Assembly: GCA_001001205.1 (NCBI GenBank)
Contig: LCKE01000015.1
Coordinates: 1-43,298, forward strand
Length of the DNA: 43,298 bases
DNA from: Parcubacteria group bacterium GW2011_GWF2_45_11
GTDB lineage: Bacteria; Patescibacteriota; Patescibacteriia; UBA1558; UBA10009
Direction of reading: 5' to 3'
The translations under genes and the position numbers were made by a program. Below, piece after piece: positions 3,950-43,298 of this stretch. Numbering within the stretch: position 1 is the stretch's first letter; each line of letters starts with the position of its first letter. The notes beneath the pieces were generated by a model. That model had not been told where the DNA came from and ran no database searches. It saw only the letters and a program-made list of their open reading frames with translations.

Positions 3950-3971
3950 ATAATTCAGTGAATTTAAATTA

Positions 3972-4100
3972 ATCCAGCACCCTTTCTAAAGGGTATTAGA
4001 TCCTTTAGAAAAGAATCTCTGCCAGGTAACCCTGCGGCAAGCCCGGCACCAGAAATTGGTGCTTGGGTAAGACCGCAGGGTATTAGAAAAGGTGCTGGAT
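3972..4100. repeat. 129-nt nested palindromic element, copy 1
   Basis: 16-bp terminal inverted repeat with one mismatch: ATCCAGCACCCTTTCT / AGAAAAGGTGCTGGAT. Inner hairpin is ACCCTGCGG...CCGCAGGGT, and its loop carries a further hairpin CCCGGCACCA...TGGTGCTTGGG. The last 36 nt (4068-4103) are identical to 42986-43021. Confidence 0.75.
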
Positions 4101-4195
4101 AAAAAATTACAGTATTATTATATCATTGTTTTAAAATAAAAACCCCTATTGCCATAAGGGTCCCAAAAATACTTTCAGGACGGTACCACCTTACT

Positions 4196-6071: not shown

Positions 6072-7162
6072 ACGATGCTTAAATTAGCTTCGGCAATTAA
6101 CTTGCGCCAGTTATTTTTTCTGGCGCTTTTTTGCTTGAAGTAACCGGTTAGGGCGATCATGGCCGCATTATCGCCGGTCAGCCATTTTTCCGGATAATAA
6201 AATGCCAGGCCTAAATTGAAAATTGACGATTGGAAATCGGCAATTAACATTTCATTGGCGCTGACGCCCCCGCCTAAAATAACGGACTTGGCCTTATGCT
6301 TAACCGCCGCCTTGATGGTTTTACCAACCAACACGTCAATAACGGCCTGCTGAAAACTGGCGCAGACGTCATTAATAAAAGCCTGGCTGAAATTGCCGGT
6401 CGGGACCATATCGTTCAGCTGATATTTTACGGCGGTTTTGAGGCCGGAAAAAGAAAAATCAAAATCGCCTGATTCCATCATCGGACGGGGGAAATTAATC
6501 TGGGACGAATTTCCTTTTTTGGCAAAATGGGCGATGACAGGGCCGCCTGGATAACCCAAATTCAGCATCTTGGCCACCTTGTCAAAAGCTTCGCCGGCCG
6601 CATCGTCTCTGGTCCGGCCGATTAGCCGATAGGTGCCCGGACCTTTAACTAAAATCATCTCCGTATGTCCGCCGGAAATGATAAGCCCAATCGCTGGAAA
6701 TAGCGTATCTTGCCCACCCGCCACGACAACGAGCCGGGCGGGTAACTTGTGGCTTGTATCTTGATTCAATAGGTAACTCCAGAGGTGCGCTTCCAGATGA
6801 TTGACGCCGACAAGCGGAACGTCCCAAACATAAGACAGCGTCTTGGCCGTCTGCAGACCAACTTGCAGAGAAGTGATTAAGCCAGGCCCCCGCGTTACCG
6901 CAATCAAATCAGGCTTTTGACCGTTTAATGCTTCTGCAATAACCGGACTTATGGTTTCTACATGCTTTCTGGCTGCCACTTCCGGCACAACCCCGCCGTA
7001 CTTTTTATGTATATTAACTTGCGACAGCACAACATTACCCAATATTTGAAATTTGAGATTTGAAATTTGAGATTTTTTTGTTTTGTGGGAATTGTAATCT
7101 GCAACTTCCAGCAAAGCGGCCGCTGTTTCGTCGCATGATGTTTCTATGCCTAAAATTTTCAT
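6068..7162 (-). CDS. tsaD: tRNA N6-adenosine threonylcarbamoyltransferase TsaD
   Basis: 364 aa. Starts MKILGIETSCDETAAAL; also carries GGVVPEVAARKH, SGGHTE and GGGVSAN, as in Kae1/TsaD. Contains lineage-specific inserts. Confidence 0.95.
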   Translation of the reverse strand: MKILGIETSCDETAAALLEVADYNSHKTKKSQISNLKFQILGNVVLSQVNIHKKYGGVVPEVAARKHVETISPVIAEALNGQKPDLIAVTRGPGLITSLQVGLQTAKTLSYVWDVPLVGVNHLEAHLWSYLLNQDTSHKLPARLVVVAGGQDTLFPAIGLIISGGHTEMILVKGPGTYRLIGRTRDDAAGEAFDKVAKMLNLGYPGGPVIAHFAKKGNSSQINFPRPMMESGDFDFSFSGLKTAVKYQLNDMVPTGNFSQAFINDVCASFQQAVIDVLVGKTIKAAVKHKAKSVILGGGVSANEMLIADFQSSIFNLGLAFYYPEKWLTGDNAAMIALTGYFKQKSARKNNWRKLIAEANLSIV

Positions 7163-26342: not shown

Positions 26343-26424
26343 AGAAAGTGAAACTAGGAAACATATCCGTCCGACTCGTTGTCGTGGCAAGCGGGCATGT
26401 TACGTATTGCATCCTACATTCTTT

Positions 26425-28010: not shown

Positions 28011-28492
28011 CCCCGAGCTTACGCTCGGGGTATTAGCCGAACGCAAGCTTCGCTTGTCCAGAGTCCTCTTGCCCCTGCTGCTCAATATATCGCCTAATAA
28101 CCTTCAGACCAGACGCTGTCGGTGCCCCAATAGGCCTCTTTGACGAACGGGAATTTTTGCTTCAATGATTTGGCGGTATTGCTCTTTATTATCCTGACCG
28201 CATTACCCACTGACATCGTGGGAGGAATGGAGACCAAAAGGTGAATATGGTCAAAATCGTGATTAACCGTCTTACAGCTAATTAGTGGGTAATGCTTGTG
28301 AATTTCATCAAGCTTGGTCTCCAAATAGGCAAAAATTCCCTCGTTAAATATCCTCTTTCGATATTTAGTCACTAAAACAAGGTGGTAATCGCAATAGTAG
28401 ACACAATGGCTAAGTCTTGTCACTTCCATACCTTACAGTATGAGGCAAGAGGACTCTGGAATCAACTCCATCCCACGGCCTTACGGCCGGGG
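28011..28492 (-). mobile_element. IS200/IS605-family element (tnpA only), decayed
   Basis: Subterminal hairpins with an identical GTAA loop on the element strand: CCCCGAGC-GTAA-GCTCGGGG (28011-28030) and CCCCGGCC-GTAA-GGCCGTGGG (28472-28492). A 17-bp inverted repeat GGCAAGAGGACTCTGGA (28057-28073 / 28444-28460) brackets tnpA. Confidence 0.75.
28094..28429 (-). pseudogene. tnpA: IS200/IS605 Y1 (HUH) transposase TnpA, C-terminally disrupted
   Basis: HUH motif DHIHLLVSIPP is present. The frame stops after ...VWSEGY. The expected C-terminus VIRRYIEQQGQ..., with the catalytic Tyr, is readable only in another frame (about 28040-28100). About 12 codons (FVSTVG...) are missing. Confidence 0.8.
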
Positions 28493-28610
28493 AATTAAGT
28501 TGTGACTATTAAAAACTTTCGGCTCGAACTTTATTCTAAAAGGCAGAAAATTCAGATTTTTAGCCGATTTTGGCTGGGAAATTTTGGCGCAAAGCGCCTC
28601 ATTTGCGTGC

Positions 28611-29554: not shown

Positions 29555-29648
29555 TGGAGCCGACGGTCGGATTCGAACCGACGACCTACAGTTTATGCCG
29601 CCCTTGGCGGCACCCCGCCGAAGGCGGTGGCAAAACTGTTGCTCTACC
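29555..29648 (-). pseudogene. partial tRNA-Thr(UGU) copy A with a 35-nt insert in the anticodon loop
   Basis: The 3' half at 29555-29595 is 41/41 identical to the intact gene. The 35-nt insert is at 29596-29630. Then 18 nt, GGTAGAGCAACAGTTTTG (29631-29648). The acceptor 5' strand and D-stem 5' strand are absent. Confidence 0.85.
29596..29630 (-). repeat. 35-nt two-hairpin GC-rich mini-insert (copy in Thr-UGU fragment)
   Basis: Plus strand TGCCGCC-CTT-GGCGGCA CCCCGCC-GAA-GGCGGTGG. It is 32/35 identical to 30349-30383, and all 3 differences fall in the hairpin loops. Confidence 0.85.
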
Positions 29649-29659
29649 TGCCGAACGAC

Positions 29660-29716
29660 TGGAGCCGACGGTCGGATTCGAACCGACGACCTACAGTTTA
29701 TGCCGCCCTTGGCGGC
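29660..29716 (-). pseudogene. partial tRNA-Thr(UGU) copy B: 3' half plus one hairpin
   Basis: The 3' half at 29660-29700 is 41/41 identical. It is joined at the same anticodon-loop position to TGCCGCCCTTGGCGGC (29701-29716). It shares the trailer GTCGTTCGG with the intact gene. Confidence 0.85.
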
Positions 29717-29725
29717 CCGAACGAC

Positions 29726-29801
29726 TGGAGCCGACGGTCGGATTCGAACCGACGACCTACAGTTTACAAAACTGTTGCTCTACCAACTGAGCTACGTCGG
29801 C
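29726..29801 (-). tRNA. tRNA-Thr(UGU)
   Basis: GCCGACG TA GCTC AGTTGGTA GAGC A ACAGT TTTGTAA ACTGT AGGTC GTCGG TTCGAAT CCGAC CGTCGGC T CCA. Confidence 0.93.
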
Positions 29802-29822
29802 GACTGGCGACTGGCGGGCAGG

Positions 29823-29859
29823 CAAAACTGTTGCTCGGCAAATCAGCTTAACATATCGC
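29823..29859 (-). pseudogene. degenerate 5' half of tRNA-Thr(UGU)
   Basis: GAGCAACAGTTTTG is exact (29823-29836) and is preceded by a diverged acceptor/D-arm-like stretch. It ends at the same anticodon-loop position and abuts CCTGCCCGCCAGTCGCCAGTC and then the intact gene. Confidence 0.55.
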
Positions 29860-29979: not shown

Positions 29980-30065
29980 TGGTGGGCCGGGTAGGATTCG
30001 AACCTACGAAGGCGAAAGCCAACAGATTTACAGTCTGTCCCGTTTGACCGCTTCGGTACCGACCC
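29980..30065 (-). tRNA. tRNA-Tyr(GUA)
   Basis: 86 nt, class II with a long variable arm. Acceptor GGGTCGG/CCGGCCC, anticodon stem ACAGA/TCTGT, loop CTGTAAA, T-loop TTCGAAT, CCA encoded. Confidence 0.92.
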
Positions 30066-30075
30066 ATATAGACTT

Positions 30076-30321
30076 TTAATTTTCAATTAGCTTTTTAAAT
30101 GCTTCACCGCCTTTATATGATTTTATTCGCAACTCTCTTTTATATGCTTCTTGTTTTGTTAAATACTTTTCCTGATATATAAATTTCCAAGGTACGCCTG
30201 GTTTTGTTGATCTGACTAAACCAGCATTGTGTCTTTTCAATCTTTGCTCCAAATTACCTGTGTGACCAATATAATACTTCTTAATTGAAACACTATATAA
30301 AATGTAAACAATATACTTCAT
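30076..30321 (-). CDS. GIY-YIG nuclease-domain protein (small, catalytic domain only)
   Basis: 81 aa. Motifs YIVYILYS...KYYIGHT (GIY-YIG), RLKRHN, and the conserved Arg/Glu region (KRELRIK). Confidence 0.85.
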   Translation of the reverse strand: MKYIVYILYSVSIKKYYIGHTGNLEQRLKRHNAGLVRSTKPGVPWKFIYQEKYLTKQEAYKRELRIKSYKGGEAFKKLIEN

Positions 30322-30341: not shown

Positions 30342-30418
30342 AGATTTATGCCGCCTGTGGCGGCACCCCGCCAAAGGCGGTGGCAGTCTGTCCCGTTTGA
30401 CCGCTTCGGTACCGACCC
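30342..30418 (-). pseudogene. duplicate of tRNA-Tyr positions 1-41 interrupted by the 35-nt insert
   Basis: GGGTCGG...ACAGACTG (30418-30384), then the 35-nt insert (30383-30349), then TAAATCT (30348-30342). The tRNA-derived parts are identical to the intact gene 277 bp downstream on the same strand. Confidence 0.85.
30349..30383 (-). repeat. 35-nt two-hairpin GC-rich mini-insert (copy in Tyr fragment)
   Basis: Plus strand TGCCGCC-TGT-GGCGGCA CCCCGCC-AAA-GGCGGTGG. It sits between TTTA and CA, exactly as in the Thr-UGU copy. Confidence 0.85.
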
Positions 30419-30626: not shown

Positions 30627-30724
30627 TGGAGCCGATGTGCGGACTTGAACCGCGGACCTACTCCTTACTCCGCCTACACCCCTTGTTTTGCTTGGGGTTT
30701 CGGCGGACAGGCATGGAGTTGCTC
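30627..30724 (-). pseudogene. partial tRNA-Thr(GGU) copy with a 44-nt insert in the anticodon loop
   Basis: The 3' part at 30627-30668 is 41/42 identical to the intact gene. A 44-nt hairpin insert TCCGCC...GGCGGA-CAGGC lies at 30669-30712. Then ATGGAGTTGCTC (30713-30724). The acceptor 5' strand and D-loop are absent. Confidence 0.8.
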
Positions 30725-30741
30725 CCCGCCTGCCGATCGCC

Positions 30742-30817
30742 TGGAGCCGATGTGCGGACTTGAACCGCAGACCTACTCCTTACCATGGAGTTGCTCTACC
30801 AACTGAGCTACATCGGC
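30742..30817 (-). tRNA. tRNA-Thr(GGU)
   Basis: GCCGATG TA GCTC AGTTGGTA GAGC A ACTCC ATGGTAA GGAGT AGGTC TGCGG TTCAAGT CCGCA CATCGGC T CCA. Confidence 0.93.
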
Positions 30818-30838
30818 GCCCGGAGACTGGCGGGCAGG

Positions 30839-30859
30839 TACTAACTGAGCTACAACGGC
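30839..30859 (-). pseudogene. orphan tRNA 5' fragment (acceptor strand plus D-stem/loop)
   Basis: GCCGTTGTAGCTCAGTTAGTA is 19/21 identical to the Thr-GGU 5' end. It stops after D-loop ...GTA and abuts CCTGCCCGCCAGTCTCCGGGC and then the intact gene. Confidence 0.65.
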
Positions 30860-38116: not shown

Positions 38117-38268
38117 GAATTATTGGGTTAAGGGTTAAGTGTCACCCGCCCGACTCACCGTCGTAACGGGCGGGCACGTTATGGGTTAAGTGATTGTTTA
38201 ATTTTTTGCCGCGCCCCGCTCGCTCCGCTTGCGGCGTCGGGTCTGGGATTATTTGTTTTCTTGATTTT

Positions 38269-38589: not shown

Positions 38590-38662
38590 ACTTTCTATGA
38601 TTTATCCGGCACCCCCTGAAGTATATTTATATAACTTAAGAGTGGTGCTCGGGGCGCTGGCT

Positions 38663-40802: not shown

Positions 40803-42092
40803 TTAATCATTCTGGGAAACGGAATGGTTTCGCGGATATGATGCACGCCGGCCAACCAACCGACCAGTCGTGTATTTTCTCAAATCCAAATACCATTGAA
40901 AAGCTTCTACCGGCAATTTTTCTTTTTTGATTCTTTCTAGCAAGATCTGATAATCATCCTCCCTTTGCGAACCCCCGATAACTTCGCCAAAGCCTTCGGT
41001 GGCGATTAAATCATCGCACAAAGCCACTTGATCGGCGCTATCGTGCTTCATGTAAAAAGCTTTGATGTGCGCCGGCCATTTTTCCACAAAAACTGGCACG
41101 TCTGAATCTTTAGTCAGTAAAGTTTCATCATCGGCGCCCAGATCGTCATCTTCTTTAATGTCGGAACCCAGGGCCTGCAGTTTTTTAACGGCCTCGGCGT
41201 AAGTCAGCCTTAAAAACGGCGCTTTGATTTTCTTTAACGGCGCAATTTCCCTTTCCAAAATTTCCAGTTCTTTTTGATTCTCGGCCAAAACCTGGCTAAC
41301 CACAAAACTGATTAAGTCTTCCTGAATTTTCATGTTTTCTTCATGTTGAACAAAAGCGGCTTCGGCATCCATCATCCAAAATTCCGTCAAATGCTTTCTG
41401 GTTTTAGATTTTTCCGCCCGGAACACCGGACCAAAATCAAAGACCCGGCCGTGGGCGAAAATTGCCGCTTCAATATAAAGCTGCCCGGATTGCGAAAGAT
41501 AAGCCGATCCAAGATCAAAATACGGCACTTCAAACAAAGTGGTGGTGCCTTCGCAGGCGGTGGGCGTTAAAATCGGCGAATCTATTTTAATAAAGCCGTT
41601 AGCATTCAAATATGCGTAAAGTGAGTTGATGACGGTGTTTCTGAGTTGCTGGATGGCCCATTGCTTAGGGCTCCTAAGCCACAAATGACGGTTTTCCAAA
41701 AGAAAATCCGGACCATGTTCTTTGTTGCCGATCGGATATTCTTCGGCCACCTGAATCAGCTTAATATCGCTGACCTGCAATTCGTATTCTTCTTTTTTAG
41801 GATGTTTGCTGATAATACCAGTAAGTTCTACTGAAGTTTCCTGGGTGATTTTTTGACAATCAGCCCAAACCTGGGCGCTAACCACCGACTTATTGACGAT
41901 CGCCTGAATAAAACCCGCGCCGTCCCTGATTTGCAAAAAATAAAGACTCCCGCTTGATCGAAAGTTATAGACCCAACCTTGAATTTTCACCTCCTGCCCG
42001 ACAAATTTTCCAGCCTTTAATATGCTTATTATAGTCATAGATTTATGGTAATTATAATATTTTTTGGTTTTTTTGTAAAACTGGTTTGCCAT
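40803..42092 (-). CDS. asnS: asparaginyl-tRNA synthetase with deletion/frameshift at motif 3 (possible pseudogene)
   Basis: OB-fold N-domain and motif 2 ([28 protein letters not shown]) are intact. After WYLDLRKY the frame yields a non-homologous tail. The conserved end [28 protein letters not shown] is readable in the +1 frame (40790-40871, stop 40787-40789). About 13 codons (G..PH.GFGLG.E) are missing. Confidence 0.85.
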
Positions 42093-42159: not shown

Positions 42160-42234
42160 TGGCTGTGGAGGCTGGATTCGAACCAGCGACATCATGATTA
42201 ACAGTCATGCGTTCTACCACTGAACTACTCCACA
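42160..42234 (-). tRNA. tRNA-Asn(GUU)
   Basis: TGTGGAG TA GTTC AGTGGTA GAAC G CATGA CTGTTAA TCATG ATGTC GCTGG TTCGAAT CCAGC CTCCACA G CCA. Confidence 0.93.
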
Positions 42235-42332: not shown

Positions 42333-42749
42333 ATGACTAATCTTGAATCGTCCGAACCGGCCAGATTAAGCCGTCAATTATATCGTAATCTGGTTTTTGT
42401 CGTCGGCATCATCGCCACTTTTGCCTATAGAATCATCGTGGTTTTGAATTATTACAGCCAGCTGTGGGTGGAAATTTCCTGGTACATCGGCACGCTGGGA
42501 TTTATCTGGTACTTTGCCCATCGCTACCGGGTGGAAAACAAACGCGATAAACTGGTGGAAGAAAAACAGCTGGCGGAAAAAATCGTGTCGCAGGGGGAAC
42601 TGAGCGCAGCAGACCGTGAATCGCTGGCTTACATCTTAAATGGCCTAAAAACCAGCAAAGCCAAATGGAACTATATTTTTATCTTTATTTTCTCGGTCTT
42701 AGCCCTGATTTACGGCATTTATAACCATTTAACTCTGTGGTTAAAATAA
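42333..42749 (+). CDS. hypothetical membrane protein
   Basis: 138 aa with 3 hydrophobic helices separated by a charged helical segment. Confidence 0.6.
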   Translation: MTNLESSEPARLSRQLYRNLVFVVGIIATFAYRIIVVLNYYSQLWVEISWYIGTLGFIWYFAHRYRVENKRDKLVEEKQLAEKIVSQGELSAADRESLAYILNGLKTSKAKWNYIFIFIFSVLALIYGIYNHLTLWLK

Positions 42750-42810
42750 TCTAAACGGCCGGGCGCTGATTTCAGCTTCAACGGGCTTGGCCACGCCCTC
42801 AAAAAATCAA

Positions 42811-42904
42811 TGGCTCCGAGACCTAGAATCGAACTAGGATCGCTGCATTAACAGTGCAGGGTTTCCTGTCTGCCGGCAGGCAGGTACCAATAAACTATCT
42901 CGGA
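42811..42904 (-). tRNA. second tRNA-Asn(GUU)-like gene carrying a 20-nt hairpin insert in the D-loop (function uncertain)
   Basis: TCCGAGA TA GTTT ATTGGTA [CCTGCCTGCCGGCAGACAGG] AAAC C CTGCA CTGTTAA TGCAG CGAT CCTAG TTCGATT CTAGG TCTCGGA G CCA. The cloverleaf is perfect once 42865-42884 is removed. Confidence 0.7.
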
Positions 42905-42908
42905 ATAA

Positions 42909-43018
42909 ATCCAGCGCCCTTTTTTGAGGGTATTCGTAAGCACCACCCTAAAGTTATATAAACTATACTTCAGGGTAGGGTTGGCTAAGACCGCAGGGTA
43001 TTAGAAAAGGTGCTGGAT
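42909..43018. repeat. nested palindromic element, copy 2 (110 nt)
   Basis: Left arm ATCCAGCGCCCTTTTTTGAGGGTATT and right arm GGGTATTAGAAAAGGTGCTGGAT. 42986-43021 is identical to 4068-4103. It starts 4 nt from the 5' end of the interrupted tRNA-Asn. Confidence 0.75.
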
Positions 43019-43298
43019 AAATCTATATTAAGCATCAAAAAACCGACTCTCTTTAAAACTCGGTTGATTTTTTCCTTTCTTGCCTGCCCTGAGCGAAGTC
43101 AAAGGGCTTTCTGGTTTTATTGTTTTCTTGCTTTATGGAAAAATCACCAAGCCTTTAGTCGGTTATTATTATCGTTATTATTGTTGGTGAACTGTCTCAT
43201 ATTCTTAACTTAACAAAAAATCATTGACTAGTCAAATAAATCGCATTGGGACATCTAAAACCTTACTTTACCTTCTCTCATTGGGTCATTTAAAATGT

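Follow-up and report, generated by a model that had tools for sequence, protein, structure and literature searches.

A tRNA-Asn(GUU) gene interrupted at position 21/22 by a widespread palindrome, probably a scar of GIY-YIG-linked mobile DNA

Why should a tRNA gene with four fully paired stems carry a 20-nt palindrome in its D-loop? The question is raised by Asn2, a second tRNA-Asn(GUU) gene in the window, which is the whole stretch of 43,298 nt analyzed here. The same palindrome was found in many uncultured microbes, often at that tRNA position and near GIY-YIG genes, and therefore the insert is read as a scar of mobile DNA and not as an intron. With moderate confidence, we propose that Asn2 is a redundant second tRNA-Asn(GUU) gene, probably impaired, into which one copy of the palindrome (P) was inserted precisely between positions 21 and 22 as the DNA-level scar of a GIY-YIG-linked mobile palindrome. 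Among the options offered by an earlier sequence-only reading of this DNA, a tolerated pseudogene or foreign copy is the best fit.

The interrupted gene and its neighbors

The features of Asn2 and of the adjacent asparagine genes are as follows.

42811..42904, minus strand: Asn2, full-length tRNA-Asn(GUU) with a 20-nt palindrome in the D-loop (sequence, Rfam, tRNA-profile nhmmer)
42885..42904, minus strand: Asn2 positions 1-21, comprising the acceptor 5' strand, U8 A9, the D-stem 5' strand, and the D-loop AUUGGUA (blastn-short with the insert-free tRNA, query 1-20, and sequence)
42865..42884, strand given as ".": the insert P', CCTGCCTGCCGGCAGACAGG, with one mismatch against the perfect palindrome P, CCTGCCTGCCGGCAGGCAGG (sequence)
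42811..42864, minus strand: Asn2 positions 22-76, comprising the D-stem 3' strand, the GUU anticodon arm, a 4-nt variable loop, the T arm, the acceptor 3' strand, G73, and CCA (blastn-short, Rfam)
42160..42234, minus strand: Asn1, canonical uninterrupted tRNA-Asn(GUU), 67 nt upstream of asnS (ARAGORN; Rfam, 75.7 bits)
40803..42092, minus strand: asnS, asparagine--tRNA ligase (NCBIfam NF003037, 442.9 bits, cut-off 414)

Read on the minus strand from 42904 to 42811, Asn2 is TCCGAGATAGTTTATTGGTA[CCTGCCTGCCGGCAGACAGG]AAACCCTGCACTGTTAATGCAGCGATCCTAGTTCGATTCTAGGTCTCGGAGCCA, and the insert lies exactly between A21 and position 22, directly after the GGTA of the D-loop as had been noticed from the sequence. 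The flawless cloverleaf claimed for the gene without these 20 nt was confirmed, as all four stems are paired (acceptor, 7 bp; D, 4 bp; anticodon, 5 bp; T, 5 bp) and U1-A72, U8, A14, G18G19, A21, U33, the anticodon GUU, the T-loop UUCGAUU, G73, and an encoded CCA are present. The variable loop consists of 4 nt, and the Levitt pair U15/U48 is non-standard. The bacterial Asn identity set, which comprises the anticodon G34 U35 U36 and the discriminator G73, is complete in Asn2 as read from the sequence.

Asn2 was overlooked by ARAGORN and by Rfam at default filters. With permissive filters, Rfam reported a tRNA (RF00005, 42814-42904 on the minus strand, 54.2 bits with a gathering score of 29, E-value 7.5e-11) with a 21-nt D-loop insert, and the tRNA-profile nhmmer search matched the insert-free gene over model positions 3-73. 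The number of chance matches to the 20-mer expected in the window was 0.00. In the predicted minimum-free-energy fold of the Asn2 RNA (z = -2.6), the acceptor, anticodon, and T arms are kept and P forms a separate hairpin, while the AU-only D-stem is absent. No sigma-70-like promoter was found upstream of Asn2 on the minus strand, but the same was true of Asn1, which makes this weak evidence; the scan for promoters and terminators around Asn2 was uninformative.

Asn2 with the identical imperfect-palindrome insert was also found in two assemblies from other samples (L081 and L082), and the insert is therefore not an assembly artefact. Only two substitutions were observed among the three strains, both compatible with the structure: G6-C67 is replaced by G6.U67, and U15 by A15, which would give a standard A15-U48 pair. 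Such changes are also expected from continued function, but prove nothing about it. The inverted words that had been described as bracketing the gene, GCCCTCAAAAAA (42795-42806) and TTTTTTGAGGG (42920-42930), are present in the window; they are not conserved, as the right word is altered without compensation in L082.

The canonical tRNA-Asn(GUU) that had been reported nearby is Asn1 (100% identical in L081, L083, and L084). The host is a bacterium, with AsnRS, AspRS, and ValRS of bacterial type and Patescibacteria MAGs as closest relatives. In a synteny search with AsnRS, limited to one genome per species, 80 loci were obtained with a best identity of 71%; a tRNA-Asn gene was near asnS in two of them and interrupted in none. 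Uninterrupted orthologues of the Asn2 body, for which a search had been suggested, were found neither in the viral contigs, where an exact search gave no match, nor among the distant relatives (67-77% identity) of the 138-aa ORF neighboring Asn2, where no tRNA-Asn adjoined the ORF. A blastn search of Asn2 against GenBank phages and plasmids, by which the 20-mer itself is undetectable, returned weak matches to generic tRNA arms only. The insertion into Asn2 is deduced by analogy rather than seen directly, because no empty-site allele was found.

The palindrome in other DNA and in other tRNA genes

P was detected at 46 sites in 38 loci of IMG/VR, as a perfect palindrome at 42 of the 46, and in at least 120 metagenome loci, for which the search pattern demanded G-D-N-A before P and thus enriched D-loop contexts. 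The G+C content of the P loci ranged from 0.29 to 0.68. The one-mismatch variant P' also occurs in L109, L150, L172, and L228, diverged copies are found in, for example, L096, L179, and L255, and the copies in L117 and L125 are embedded in longer repeats with diverged flanks. The highest count was six copies in one 29.5-kb viral contig, and P is common in non-tRNA DNA as well. No copy of perfect P was present in plasmids (7.3 Gb) or in GenBank phages (2.3 Gb). P is widespread among uncultured bacteria and their viruses, and is one of several GC-rich hairpins that accompany small GIY-YIG cassettes.

Two candidate descriptions of the insertion were rejected. P does not always lie in the loop of a pre-existing hairpin, as stems of at least 5 bp were present at 8.7% of the metagenome sites versus 3.2% of controls and at 7.0% of the viral sites versus 3.5%, which is a modest enrichment and not a rule. 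Nor does P behave as a transposon with a fixed target duplication: 7-nt direct repeats flank 16% of the viral sites versus 2% of controls, a minority, and none of the tRNA sites. No common target word was found 5' of P.

Within tRNA-profile matches, P occupied model position 21-22 at at least 15 metagenome sites and in L130, with tRNAs including Val, Arg, Asp, and Thr, and nearly all copies at 21/22 lie in 5' tRNA fragments. The other tRNA sites were 35/36 of tRNA-Met (three copies in L215), the variable loop of tRNA-fMet (L121), and T-loops (L201 and L219); the inserts in tRNAs fall in RNA loops, namely the D, anticodon, variable, and T loops. Insertion was exact when compared with an intact copy of the same locus (GGATA[P]GAAT versus GGATAGAAT), with neither duplication nor loss. 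The tRNA-Asn of L130 contains a true group I intron (86 bits).

The tRNAs that carry P elsewhere are decayed. In a strict D-arm test, all 13 D-loop P sites were fragments, the 14th passing site (L219) being a T-loop insertion; in L097, a 13-nt deletion of the T arm, relative to L121, lies beside P; and a full-length tRNA-Met with P in the anticodon loop adjoins intact copies. These contexts suggest that P-bearing tRNAs are dispensable. Of the approximately 17 cases listed with P in the D-loop, Asn2 alone is a clean full-length tRNA.

Small GIY-YIG genes beside hairpin-bearing tRNA fragments

The 43-kb window contains, in addition to the one P', four related arms. The word CCTGYCYGCC, which is related to the 20-mer, occurs six times in the window versus 0.38 expected, five of these at junctions of tRNAs or tRNA fragments. 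The Thr and Tyr clusters comprise the following features.

30839..30859, minus strand: Thr-GGU 5' fragment, positions 1-21, ending in ...GTTAGTA and joined to a P-like left arm (sequence, blastn-short)
30829..30838, minus strand: P-like left arm CCTGCCCGCC, matching the left arm of P at 9/10 bases and located at the 21/22 junction of Thr-GGU (sequence)
30742..30817, minus strand: intact tRNA-Thr(GGU), nested between the pieces of an outer broken copy (ARAGORN, Rfam)
30725..30734, minus strand: P-like right arm GGCAGGCGGG (9/10), directly before the Thr-GGU fragment 22-34 (sequence)
30712..30724, minus strand: Thr-GGU fragment, positions 22-34 (blastn-short)
30669..30711, minus strand: 43-nt GC-rich hairpin (CCTGTCCGCC...GGCGGA) lying between 34 and 35, within the anticodon of the broken Thr-GGU copy (sequence)
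30627..30668, minus strand: Thr-GGU fragment, positions 35-76, with a C49.A65 mismatch (sequence)
30384..30418, minus strand: tRNA-Tyr 5' fragment, positions 1-35 (blastn-short)
30349..30383, minus strand: double hairpin CCACCGCCTTTGGCGGGG TGCCGCCACAGGCGGCA inserted into the anticodon loop of Tyr, with the GIY-YIG start codon 27 nt downstream
30076..30321, minus strand: ORF of an 81-aa GIY-YIG nuclease, followed directly by the intact tRNA-Tyr (Pfam PF01541, 6.7e-15)
29980..30065, minus strand: intact tRNA-Tyr(GUA) (ARAGORN, Rfam)
29555..29836, minus strand: Thr-UGU cluster, with an intact gene at 29726-29801
Minus strand, within that cluster: Thr-UGU fragments 22-35 (29823-29836), 36-76 (29660-29700 and 29555-29595), and 18-35 (29631-29648)

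The sequence-only reading had assigned the Asn2 insert and the joint of the Thr-GGU 5' fragment to a single insert family and a single tRNA position. This holds, as CCTGCCCGCC follows ...GTTAGTA at 21/22, and the claim is greatly strengthened by the P loci outside the window. The Thr-UGU fragments are joined by CCTGCCCGCC (29813-29822) and by ...CGGCAGG and TGCCGCCAAGGGCGGCA hairpins, and a double hairpin nearly identical to that of the Tyr gene (CCACCGCCTACGGCGGGG TGCCGCCAAAGGCGGCA) stands at the corresponding place in L263.

A reading of the Thr-GGU locus as P-like arms carrying a tRNA cargo was dropped, because the comparison with L263 is fitted better by a decayed array (5' fragments, hairpins, and a lost GIY-YIG ORF). 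The U5.U68 mismatch of the outer Thr-GGU pieces was likewise dropped as a sign of decay, because L263 shows that the 5' piece is from a different allele (GCCGTTG/CAACGGC); the only remaining signs in the outer copy are G18 to A and C49.A65.

The only protein family recurrent within 800 nt of P (loci L096-L272) was GIY-YIG, at 17 loci. P-selected loci (775 kb) contained 16 GIY-YIG ORFs, 13 of them within 50 nt of P, whereas control CPR loci (658 kb) contained none. A GIY-YIG ORF was beside a hairpin-bearing tRNA piece in 16 of the 120 P-selected loci among the matches listed, and also at the Tyr locus of the window. In the GIY-YIG-bearing P loci, P sits 12-33 nt upstream of the GIY-YIG ATG, and the order is a 5' tRNA fragment with P, an ORF of approximately 80 aa, and an intact copy of the same tRNA. 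The Thr and Tyr genes of the window show degenerate versions of this fragment, hairpin, GIY-YIG, and intact-tRNA layout.

Homologues of the 81-aa ORF numbered 295 at E <= 1e-8. In a sample chosen from the GIY-YIG side regardless of P, every locus consisted of a hairpin-bearing 5' fragment, the GIY-YIG ORF, and an intact tRNA just downstream; this sample includes the cultured Melioribacter roseus P3M-2 (CP003557, about 2,580,400-2,584,000), with two tandem units (L258 and L259) and an intact tRNA-Ser(GCT) gene, and close relatives of the Thr/Tyr cluster of the window, and its GC-rich hairpins are other than P. The family alignment showed conservation of the catalytic residues Y6, Y17, G19, R27, H31, and E63. 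The proteins, of approximately 80 aa, represent the catalytic domain alone, closest to UPF0213 and SLX1, with no separate DNA-binding domain. The tRNA species hit by the module are Asn, Thr, Tyr, Val, Arg, Asp, Met, Ser, and Trp.

Among P loci sampled without selection for D-loop-like flanks, a GIY-YIG gene was nearby in 1 of 38, and most copies of P are without one. The link between P and GIY-YIG may be partly indirect, in that GIY-YIG cassettes make dead tRNA fragments in which P can persist.

In the literature searched, no description was found of the P/GIY-YIG/tRNA module, and nothing relevant on the 20-mer or on UPF0213/YhbQ. The module, made up of a small GIY-YIG gene, a conserved GC-rich palindrome, and the displaced 5' fragment of a tRNA, is compact and apparently undescribed, and its range from Patescibacteria to the cultured M. 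roseus makes bench study possible. Standard tRNA finders, which miss Asn2, would also mishandle the many tRNA fragments with hairpins that CPR and other genomes contain. The sequence-only reading had missed that the insert is a near-perfect copy of a widespread palindrome tied to small tRNA-targeting GIY-YIG cassettes.

Origin of the insert and comparison with known systems

Under the scar interpretation, small GIY-YIG gene cassettes would invade tRNA genes and be placed before an intact tRNA copy, leaving a displaced 5' fragment in which a hairpin occupies 21/22, the anticodon loop, or both. Asn2 could then have arisen by either of two routes. P may have been inserted or copied straight into the D-loop by gene conversion, aided by the highly conserved D-arm sequence; or a [1-21]P[22-33]-GIY-[1-76] cassette may have been lost by recombination between both copies of 22-33, the product of which would be exactly [1-21]P[22-76]. 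No GIY-YIG ORF or remnant was found within 12.5 kb of Asn2, so the cassette-loss route is without a local trace. P would not be removed from the Asn2 RNA, and the transcript would carry an extra 8-10-bp hairpin beside the D-stem, probably making a poor or inactive tRNA. Such impairment would be tolerated because the canonical Asn1 beside asnS provides tRNA-Asn.

As a tentative extension, it is possible that a previously undescribed class of mobile element has its cis-acting sites in P and the sister hairpins, so that the GIY-YIG protein would have an enzymatic role on P. The protein of approximately 80 aa would cut tRNA genes, and the cassette would spread by recombination and supply or regenerate an intact tRNA instead of using a self-splicing intron. 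The 20-bp palindrome would mark and inactivate the displaced piece or shield it from recutting, and it could remain or be copied solo, as in Asn2. The module raises the question of how a single 20-bp palindrome can be kept identical in such different genomes; on this reading, the near-identity of P over hosts of 29-68% G+C would reflect recognition by the conserved nuclease. Alongside self-splicing introns and integrase att sites, the module would give selfish elements a third means of occupying an essential RNA gene without host death.

The best surviving alternative, which we consider unlikely, is that Asn2 is a working tRNA, in which the P hairpin is tolerated as a protrusion where the D-loop meets the D-stem, and AsnRS charges the 94-nt RNA for use in translation. 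The perfect stems, the complete conserved and identity nucleotides, the three arms retained in the predicted fold with P separate, and the preservation of Asn2 and its insert in three strain-level assemblies with structure-compatible changes only are consistent with this, as is the phage tRNA-fMet of L121, which carries P in its variable loop and is otherwise intact. Class II tRNAs naturally bear an extra arm in the variable loop. However, A21 joins the U8-A14 tertiary interaction and position 22 begins the D-stem, and to our knowledge a 20-nt helix at that site has no natural precedent. The AU-only D-stem is not formed in the predicted fold, P is found elsewhere in dead fragments and beside the deleted T arm of L097, the canonical Asn1 is present, and the promoter result, weak as it is, also stands against a working gene.

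It is very improbable that P in Asn2 is a REP-like element moved by a Y1 transposase of the IS200/RAYT type into single-stranded DNA, with tRNA loops struck as the non-template strand folds. The size and shape of P are REP-like, its exact insertion into tRNAs without target duplication resembles that of IS200/IS605, GTAG precedes the L117 copies, and the window contains a truncated IS200-family TnpA (28094-28429). This TnpA, however, scored as IS200 (92 bits) and reached only 23.6 bits with the RAYT model (cut-off 80), and its own end hairpins are unrelated to P. Moreover, GIY-YIG and no Y1 transposase family was recurrent within 800 nt of P (L096-L272), and no target word is shared 5' of P.

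The sequence-only reading had also left room for an excised mini-intron, that is, a processed intervening sequence cut from the pre-tRNA with its ends re-ligated or left as a two-piece tRNA, and this we regard as very improbable. Removal of exactly 20 nt gives a perfect tRNA, the inserts in tRNAs are all in RNA loops, and CPR rRNA genes carry unusual intervening sequences, all of which would suit such a mini-intron. An archaeal-type tRNA intron has a bulge-helix-bulge, in which two 3-nt bulges with a 4-bp helix between them mark the exon-intron junctions, and calls for a host with a splicing endonuclease, as in archaea or eukaryotes. No such motif is present in the predicted fold of Asn2; pairing in P' extends over all 20 bases apart from one internal C.A mismatch, and splice sites would fall in the helix because P pairs to its very ends. 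A group I intron has a ribozyme core of at least about 200 nt and usually lies in the anticodon loop, whereas the insert of 20 nt contains no group I or II ribozyme and gave no match to RF00028 in Rfam. The host is bacterial, and we know of no bacterial pathway of tRNA splicing endonuclease and ligase that would process inserts of this kind. Furthermore, the same 20-mer is common outside tRNAs, and the P-carrying copy in GIY-YIG-bearing loci is a truncated fragment incapable of yielding a tRNA.

That P arose as an artefact of assembly or of the library, for example as an adapter-like junction, is scarcely credible: an identical 20-mer across contigs of very different G+C and the lack of perfect P in the plasmids and GenBank phages might suggest one, but three assemblies with differences elsewhere share one imperfect variant at one site, tRNA sequence runs on through the flanks without a chimeric join, and there are diverged copies (L096, L179, L255) and copies within longer repeats with diverged flanks (L117, L125).

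The scar interpretation can be set beside several known systems. Free-standing GIY-YIG homing endonuclease genes lie in tRNA gene clusters, for example that of SegB in phage T4 (PMC13096335). The likeness lies in a GIY-YIG gene among or beside tRNA genes, in tRNA duplications and rearrangements, and in a cassette that needs no intron since an intact gene copy is kept. The proteins here differ in consisting of approximately 80 aa and the catalytic domain alone, in belonging to cellular genomes (CPR and Ignavibacteria) and not to phages alone, and in being accompanied by a displaced 5' tRNA fragment with GC-rich hairpins such as P; Asn2 differs in having no nuclease gene nearby.

Integrases of islands and prophages also leave a partial beside a complete tRNA copy, since the mobile element restores the interrupted gene, and the pieces left are 3' fragments that flank, as direct repeats, integrase-carrying elements of at least several kb (PMC9897764). 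Here, in contrast, the pieces are 5' or internal and tens to hundreds of nt apart, the element is approximately 0.3-0.4 kb, no integrase is present, and the fragment contains hairpins. The non-canonical tRNA introns of archaea (PMC3241643, PMC3978253) resemble Asn2 in a short D-arm insert whose removal restores the cloverleaf, and nested or split pieces are superficially alike; unlike them, Asn2 has no bulge-helix-bulge and a bacterial host, and copies of its insert are found in dead fragments and in DNA beyond tRNAs.

REP/RAYT systems share with P the short GC-rich palindromes scattered in genomes, the precise insertion, and the suspected partnership with a dedicated nuclease family. They differ in that no RAYT is tied to P, that P is identical over very different organisms whereas REPs are genome-specific, and that P is inside tRNA genes. 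Unlike a MITE, which has terminal inverted repeats and a target-site duplication, P shows no such duplication at its tRNA sites, as judged against intact copies of the same locus; given the 7-nt direct repeats at some viral sites, one may exist in other contexts.

The Rickettsia palindromic elements and the GC clusters and double-hairpin elements of fungal mitochondria are small mobile palindromes that invade AT-rich genomes and can occupy RNA or protein genes without destroying the fold. Double-hairpin forms exist among them, and the window likewise has CCACCGCC..GGCGGGG followed by TGCCGCC..GGCGGCA. They differ from P in sequence, host, and size, and we know of no report that places any of them at a fixed site of tRNAs or links them to a GIY-YIG partner.

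The interrupted tRNA-Asn(GUU) gene

The minus strand of the second tRNA-Asn(GUU) gene (Asn2), from 42904 to 42811, comprises TCCGAGATAGTTTATTGGTA, the insert CCTGCCTGCCGGCAGACAGG, and AAACCCTGCACTGTTAATGCAGCGATCCTAGTTCGATTCTAGGTCTCGGAGCCA. When the middle 20 nt were removed, a complete cloverleaf was read in the sequence, and the flawless fold proposed by the sequence-only reading was borne out by all stems and the CCA end. Asn2 was missed by ARAGORN and by Rfam with default filters (nine tRNAs listed in the window), whereas Rfam with permissive filters recognized it as a tRNA with a D-loop insert of 21 nt, scoring 54.2 bits against a gathering score of 29. No chance match to the 20-mer is expected within the window. 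The separate canonical tRNA-Asn(GUU) that had been noticed nearby (Asn1) was located beside a gene identified as asnS with NCBIfam.

Features of the two tRNA-Asn(GUU) genes
42811-42904 (-), Asn2, insert at 42865-42884
Asn2 acceptor: 7-bp stem, U1-A72
Asn2 D-arm: U8; D-stem GUUU/AAAC; D-loop AUUGGUA with A14, G18G19, and A21
Asn2 anticodon arm: 5-bp stem, loop CUGUUAA
Asn2 variable loop: 4 nt
Asn2 T arm: CCUAG/UUCGAUU/CUAGG
Asn2 3' end: G73, CCA encoded
42160-42234 (-), Asn1, canonical tRNA-Asn(GUU), 67 nt from asnS

The identical insert and the Asn2 gene were found in two strain contigs, L081 and L082, which were independently assembled from other samples and diverge from the window elsewhere. 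Among the three strains the tRNA has only two variable positions, C67 to U, by which the G6-C67 pair becomes G6.U67, and U15 to A in L082, and the insert is invariant. The Asn2 sequence is therefore genuine and the insertion predates the strain split. Both inverted words previously described around Asn2 are present, but the right-hand one is altered in L082 without compensation, and they carry no weight. The palindromic repeat copy said to adjoin the gene turned out to be one copy of a family bounded by ATCCAGCACC and GGTGCTGGAT (3961-4103, 42939-43029, and 38626-38649), in which a 41-nt stretch at 4063-4103 matches 42981-43021 at 98% identity.

A 138-aa ORF without a Pfam or NCBIfam match lies between the two tRNA-Asn genes (42333-42749, +). 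At E <= 1e-5, 241 homologues were found, of which the named ones, mostly from Patescibacteria, are typically of about 130 aa and stand in varied genomic contexts; contigs L083 and L084 end inside it, just short of Asn2. The last ~40 nt of the window (43257-43298) are wholly unlike L081 and L082, both of which run on into a Germane-domain gene, and a rearrangement, divergence between strains, or an effect of the contig end could account for this mismatch. Bacterial-type ValRS, AspRS, and AsnRS are encoded in the window together with a XerC-like recombinase, and the closest AsnRS relatives (at most 71% identity) are from Patescibacteria (CPR) MAGs.

The palindrome P and its GIY-YIG neighbour

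The Asn2 insert is a one-mismatch variant of a perfect 20-nt palindrome, P. A search of IMG/VR with the degenerate pattern CCTGYCYGCCGGCRGRCAGG revealed 46 sites in 38 viral loci (G+C 0.38 to 0.68), and the perfect palindrome, CCTGCCTGCCGGCAGGCAGG, was present in 42 of the 46; the Asn2 variant recurs in L109, L150, L172, and L228. The metagenome pattern specified P after a D-loop-like G-D-N-A and so enriched such flanks, and it yielded at least 120 loci (G+C 0.29 to 0.67), a count that is a lower bound and not a frequency. No perfect P was found in PLSDB plasmids or GenBank phages using a 30-nt blastn query carrying P (best match 19/20), and P thus belongs mainly to uncultured lineages. The 20-mer was absent from the open-access full-text literature searched.

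A profile made from the tRNAs of the fetched loci was searched against flanks from which P had been deleted. Of the 142 metagenome sites listed, 18 were crossed by a profile hit, 15 at model position 21-22 and three at 35/36 of tRNA-Met. Two viral sites were crossed, in L130 at position 21 and in L121 at about 45. In L130, P follows ...GCTCAGTTGGTA and precedes GAGC of tRNA-Asn, which is the exact site between A21 and position 22 (21/22), and in L121 it lies within the variable loop of an otherwise intact tRNA-fMet. P occupies the same variable-loop site in a related, truncated tRNA-fMet (L097), which is decaying, 13 nt of the T arm being lost directly beside P. The flank table also placed P in T-loops (L201 and L219). 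Thirteen D-loop P sites passed a strict test of D-arm geometry, and every one was a truncated fragment; the 14th passing site was the T-loop insertion of L219. In L176 and L248 the tRNA continues 3' of P without a proper 5' part. Among P-site tRNAs, Asn2 alone gave a profile match over positions 3-73.

Outside tRNAs, P often lies between direct repeats, mostly some 7 nt long (8 nt long in L098 and 14 nt in L104), or within short tandem repeats of ~7-nt period; examples are L098 1660, L104 8396, L115 3391, L156 3693, L240 2761, and L241 4480. Seven-nt direct repeats surround 16% of the viral sites, an unbiased set, versus 2% of random control positions, and they could be target duplications or repeated footprints. 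P was also found between two inverted tRNA 5' fragments (L177 9507; ...GGTA|P|TACC...) and nested in other P-like palindromes (L100/L123 and L119), arrangements suggesting either that recombination occurs at P or that one P inserts into another. A preference of P for pre-existing hairpin loops was only weakly supported.

An all-against-all comparison of ORFs showed that GIY-YIG is the sole strongly recurrent family within 800 nt of P (17 loci). In 775 kb of P-selected loci a GIY HMM detected 16 ORFs, and 13 of these lie no more than 50 nt from P; in 658 kb of CPR control loci it detected no ORF. The protein is the catalytic domain alone, with invariant catalytic residues, and the solved structures closest to it are those of the UPF0213 proteins BH0048 and EF2693, SLX1 being more distant. 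Some of the association between P and GIY-YIG may be indirect if dead tRNA fragments serve as refuges for P.

L130 has the order tRNA-Asn 1-21, P, 22-33, 6 nt, an 88-aa GIY-YIG ORF, and a full tRNA-Asn whose anticodon loop is interrupted by a group I intron (RF00028, 86 bits). Many metagenome loci share this layout, with tRNAs including Arg, Asp, Thr, Val, and Met: a 5' fragment, P at 21/22, positions 22 to about 33, 12-33 nt, ATG, a ~80-aa GIY-YIG ORF, and an intact tRNA. In the L130 stretch 826-1466, the intron of the tRNA-Asn(GUU) is called at 1182-1416, and a Cys/His-motif-rich ORF separates the 5' exon from the intron core; since the GIY-YIG cassette and the 5' fragment that carries P lie immediately upstream, one tRNA gene is occupied by selfish elements of two kinds. 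In L179, L182, L184, and L215, the GIY-YIG ORF has no stop of its own and reads through the first 21 nt of the next tRNA (peptide ...W-x-x-S-S-x-G), ending at the TAG of U20-A21-G22, the same spot that P occupies in the upstream fragment.

Hairpin arrays at other tRNA genes

The tRNA pieces in the window were mapped using blastn-short with all tRNAs, read beside the sequence. Between 29555 and 30860 (-), tRNA-Thr(GGU), tRNA-Thr(UGU), and tRNA-Tyr are each accompanied by ordered second-copy pieces joined to GC-rich hairpins. Pieces 1-21, 22-34, and 35-76 surround the intact Thr-GGU gene; the first ends in ...GTTAGTA followed by CCTGCCCGCC, the second is preceded by GGCAGGCGGG, and the anticodon of the broken copy is split by a 43-nt hairpin between 34 and 35. 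The 3' part of Thr-UGU (36-76) occurs in three identical copies with two internal pieces, joined by CCTGCCCGCC, ...CGGCAGG, and TGCCGCCAAGGGCGGCA. For Tyr, the order is a 5' piece (1-35), a double hairpin, a GIY-YIG ORF, and the intact gene.

30076-30321 (-), 81-aa GIY-YIG ORF, Pfam 6.7e-15

The word CCTGYCYGCC occurs six times in the window versus 0.38 expected, and five of the six are at Thr/Tyr tRNA junctions. With piece 1-21 of Thr-GGU joined to CCTGCCCGCC, this bears out the earlier proposal that Asn2 and Thr-GGU carry one insert family at one tRNA position. Near relatives of the Thr-GGU/Tyr/Thr-UGU/Trp cluster (L263-L272) mostly have a GIY ORF ahead of both Thr-GGU and Tyr, of which the window retains the Tyr one only. 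Judged from these layouts, the Thr loci of the window are decayed arrays of the hairpin/GIY element.

Homologues of the GIY protein of the window number 295 at E <= 1e-8; Patescibacteria supply many of them, and cultured Melioribacter some. The contexts of four homologues were fetched regardless of P. In every one, a 5' fragment with GC-rich hairpin inserts, usually from the same tRNA, precedes the ORF, and an intact tRNA (Ser-GCT, Ser-CGA, Thr-GGU, or Tyr) follows it closely. Melioribacter roseus P3M-2 has two tandem units ahead of tRNA-Ser(GCT), with a 36-nt double hairpin in the D-loop at GGCTG|AAACC, and the palindrome TGCCGCC-N3-GGCGGCA is common to the window, L260, and L263. Since these loci share the layout with other hairpins, P is one among several conserved hairpins belonging to a single kind of element, and cultured M. 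roseus offers a tractable model of the GIY/hairpin/tRNA module.

The M. roseus units (L258/L259; CP003557, about 2,580,400-2,584,000) are 357 bp long, each with the GIY-YIG ORF, the tRNA upstream region, tRNA-Ser 1-21, the double hairpin, and 22 to about 35, and the intact tRNA-Ser(GCT) lies downstream. TGCCGCC-N3-GGCGGCA is found at 29597-29611, 29702-29716, and 30350-30364 of the window, at about 1381-1397 of L260, and at about 1462-1478 of L263. This second conserved palindrome family frequently forms a double hairpin with CCACCGCC-N4-GGCGGGG inside tRNA anticodon loops, some 25 nt ahead of the start codon of a GIY-YIG ORF. GC-rich hairpin repeats of the CCCGCC...GGCGGG type lie in AT-rich intergenic DNA (6704-6746, 26364-26404, and 38141-38181), and a related cluster including CCCGCCTGCCGGCGGACAGG lies directly 3' of asnS in another CPR genome (L008 2240-2390).

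Origin and function of Asn2

The Asn2 insertion most likely occurred at the DNA level and was precise. At every locus where an intact copy accompanies a P-bearing piece, the two differ by exactly 20 nt. P may have been directly inserted or converted into the D-loop; because no part of a tRNA is more conserved than the D-arm, short homology would be available on both sides of P. Alternatively, the GIY ORF may have been lost from [1-21]P[22-33]-GIY-[1-76] by recombination between the two 22-33 copies. Either route would yield [1-21]P[22-76]. The GIY HMM detected no GIY remnant near Asn2, and no empty site was found among relatives of the neighbouring 138-aa ORF or viral contigs.

Asn2 is probably a redundant, impaired, or dead tRNA copy. 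That it is instead a tolerated, working expanded tRNA is less likely: the flawless cloverleaf, the full set of identity elements, and two structure-compatible strain differences speak for function, but A21 and position 22 are structurally important in tRNA, P-bearing tRNAs elsewhere are fragments or decaying, and it is Asn1 that adjoins asnS. An excised mini-intron, an option left by the sequence-only reading, is unlikely, since P pairs end to end and so forms no bulge-helix-bulge, no ribozyme is present, the host is a bacterium, and copies of this 20-mer are frequent in DNA outside tRNAs. A REP/RAYT element fits the shape of P but fails on the partner enzyme.

A classical MITE does not fit the tRNA sites, target duplication being absent there. 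A truncated IS200-family TnpA (28094-28429, -; 111 aa; NF033573, 92 bits; flanks to about 28030-28500) has end hairpins, CCCCGGCCGTAAGGCCGTGGG and CCCCGAGCGTAAGCTCGGGG, that are unrelated to P, and a frameshift at its 3' end is possible.
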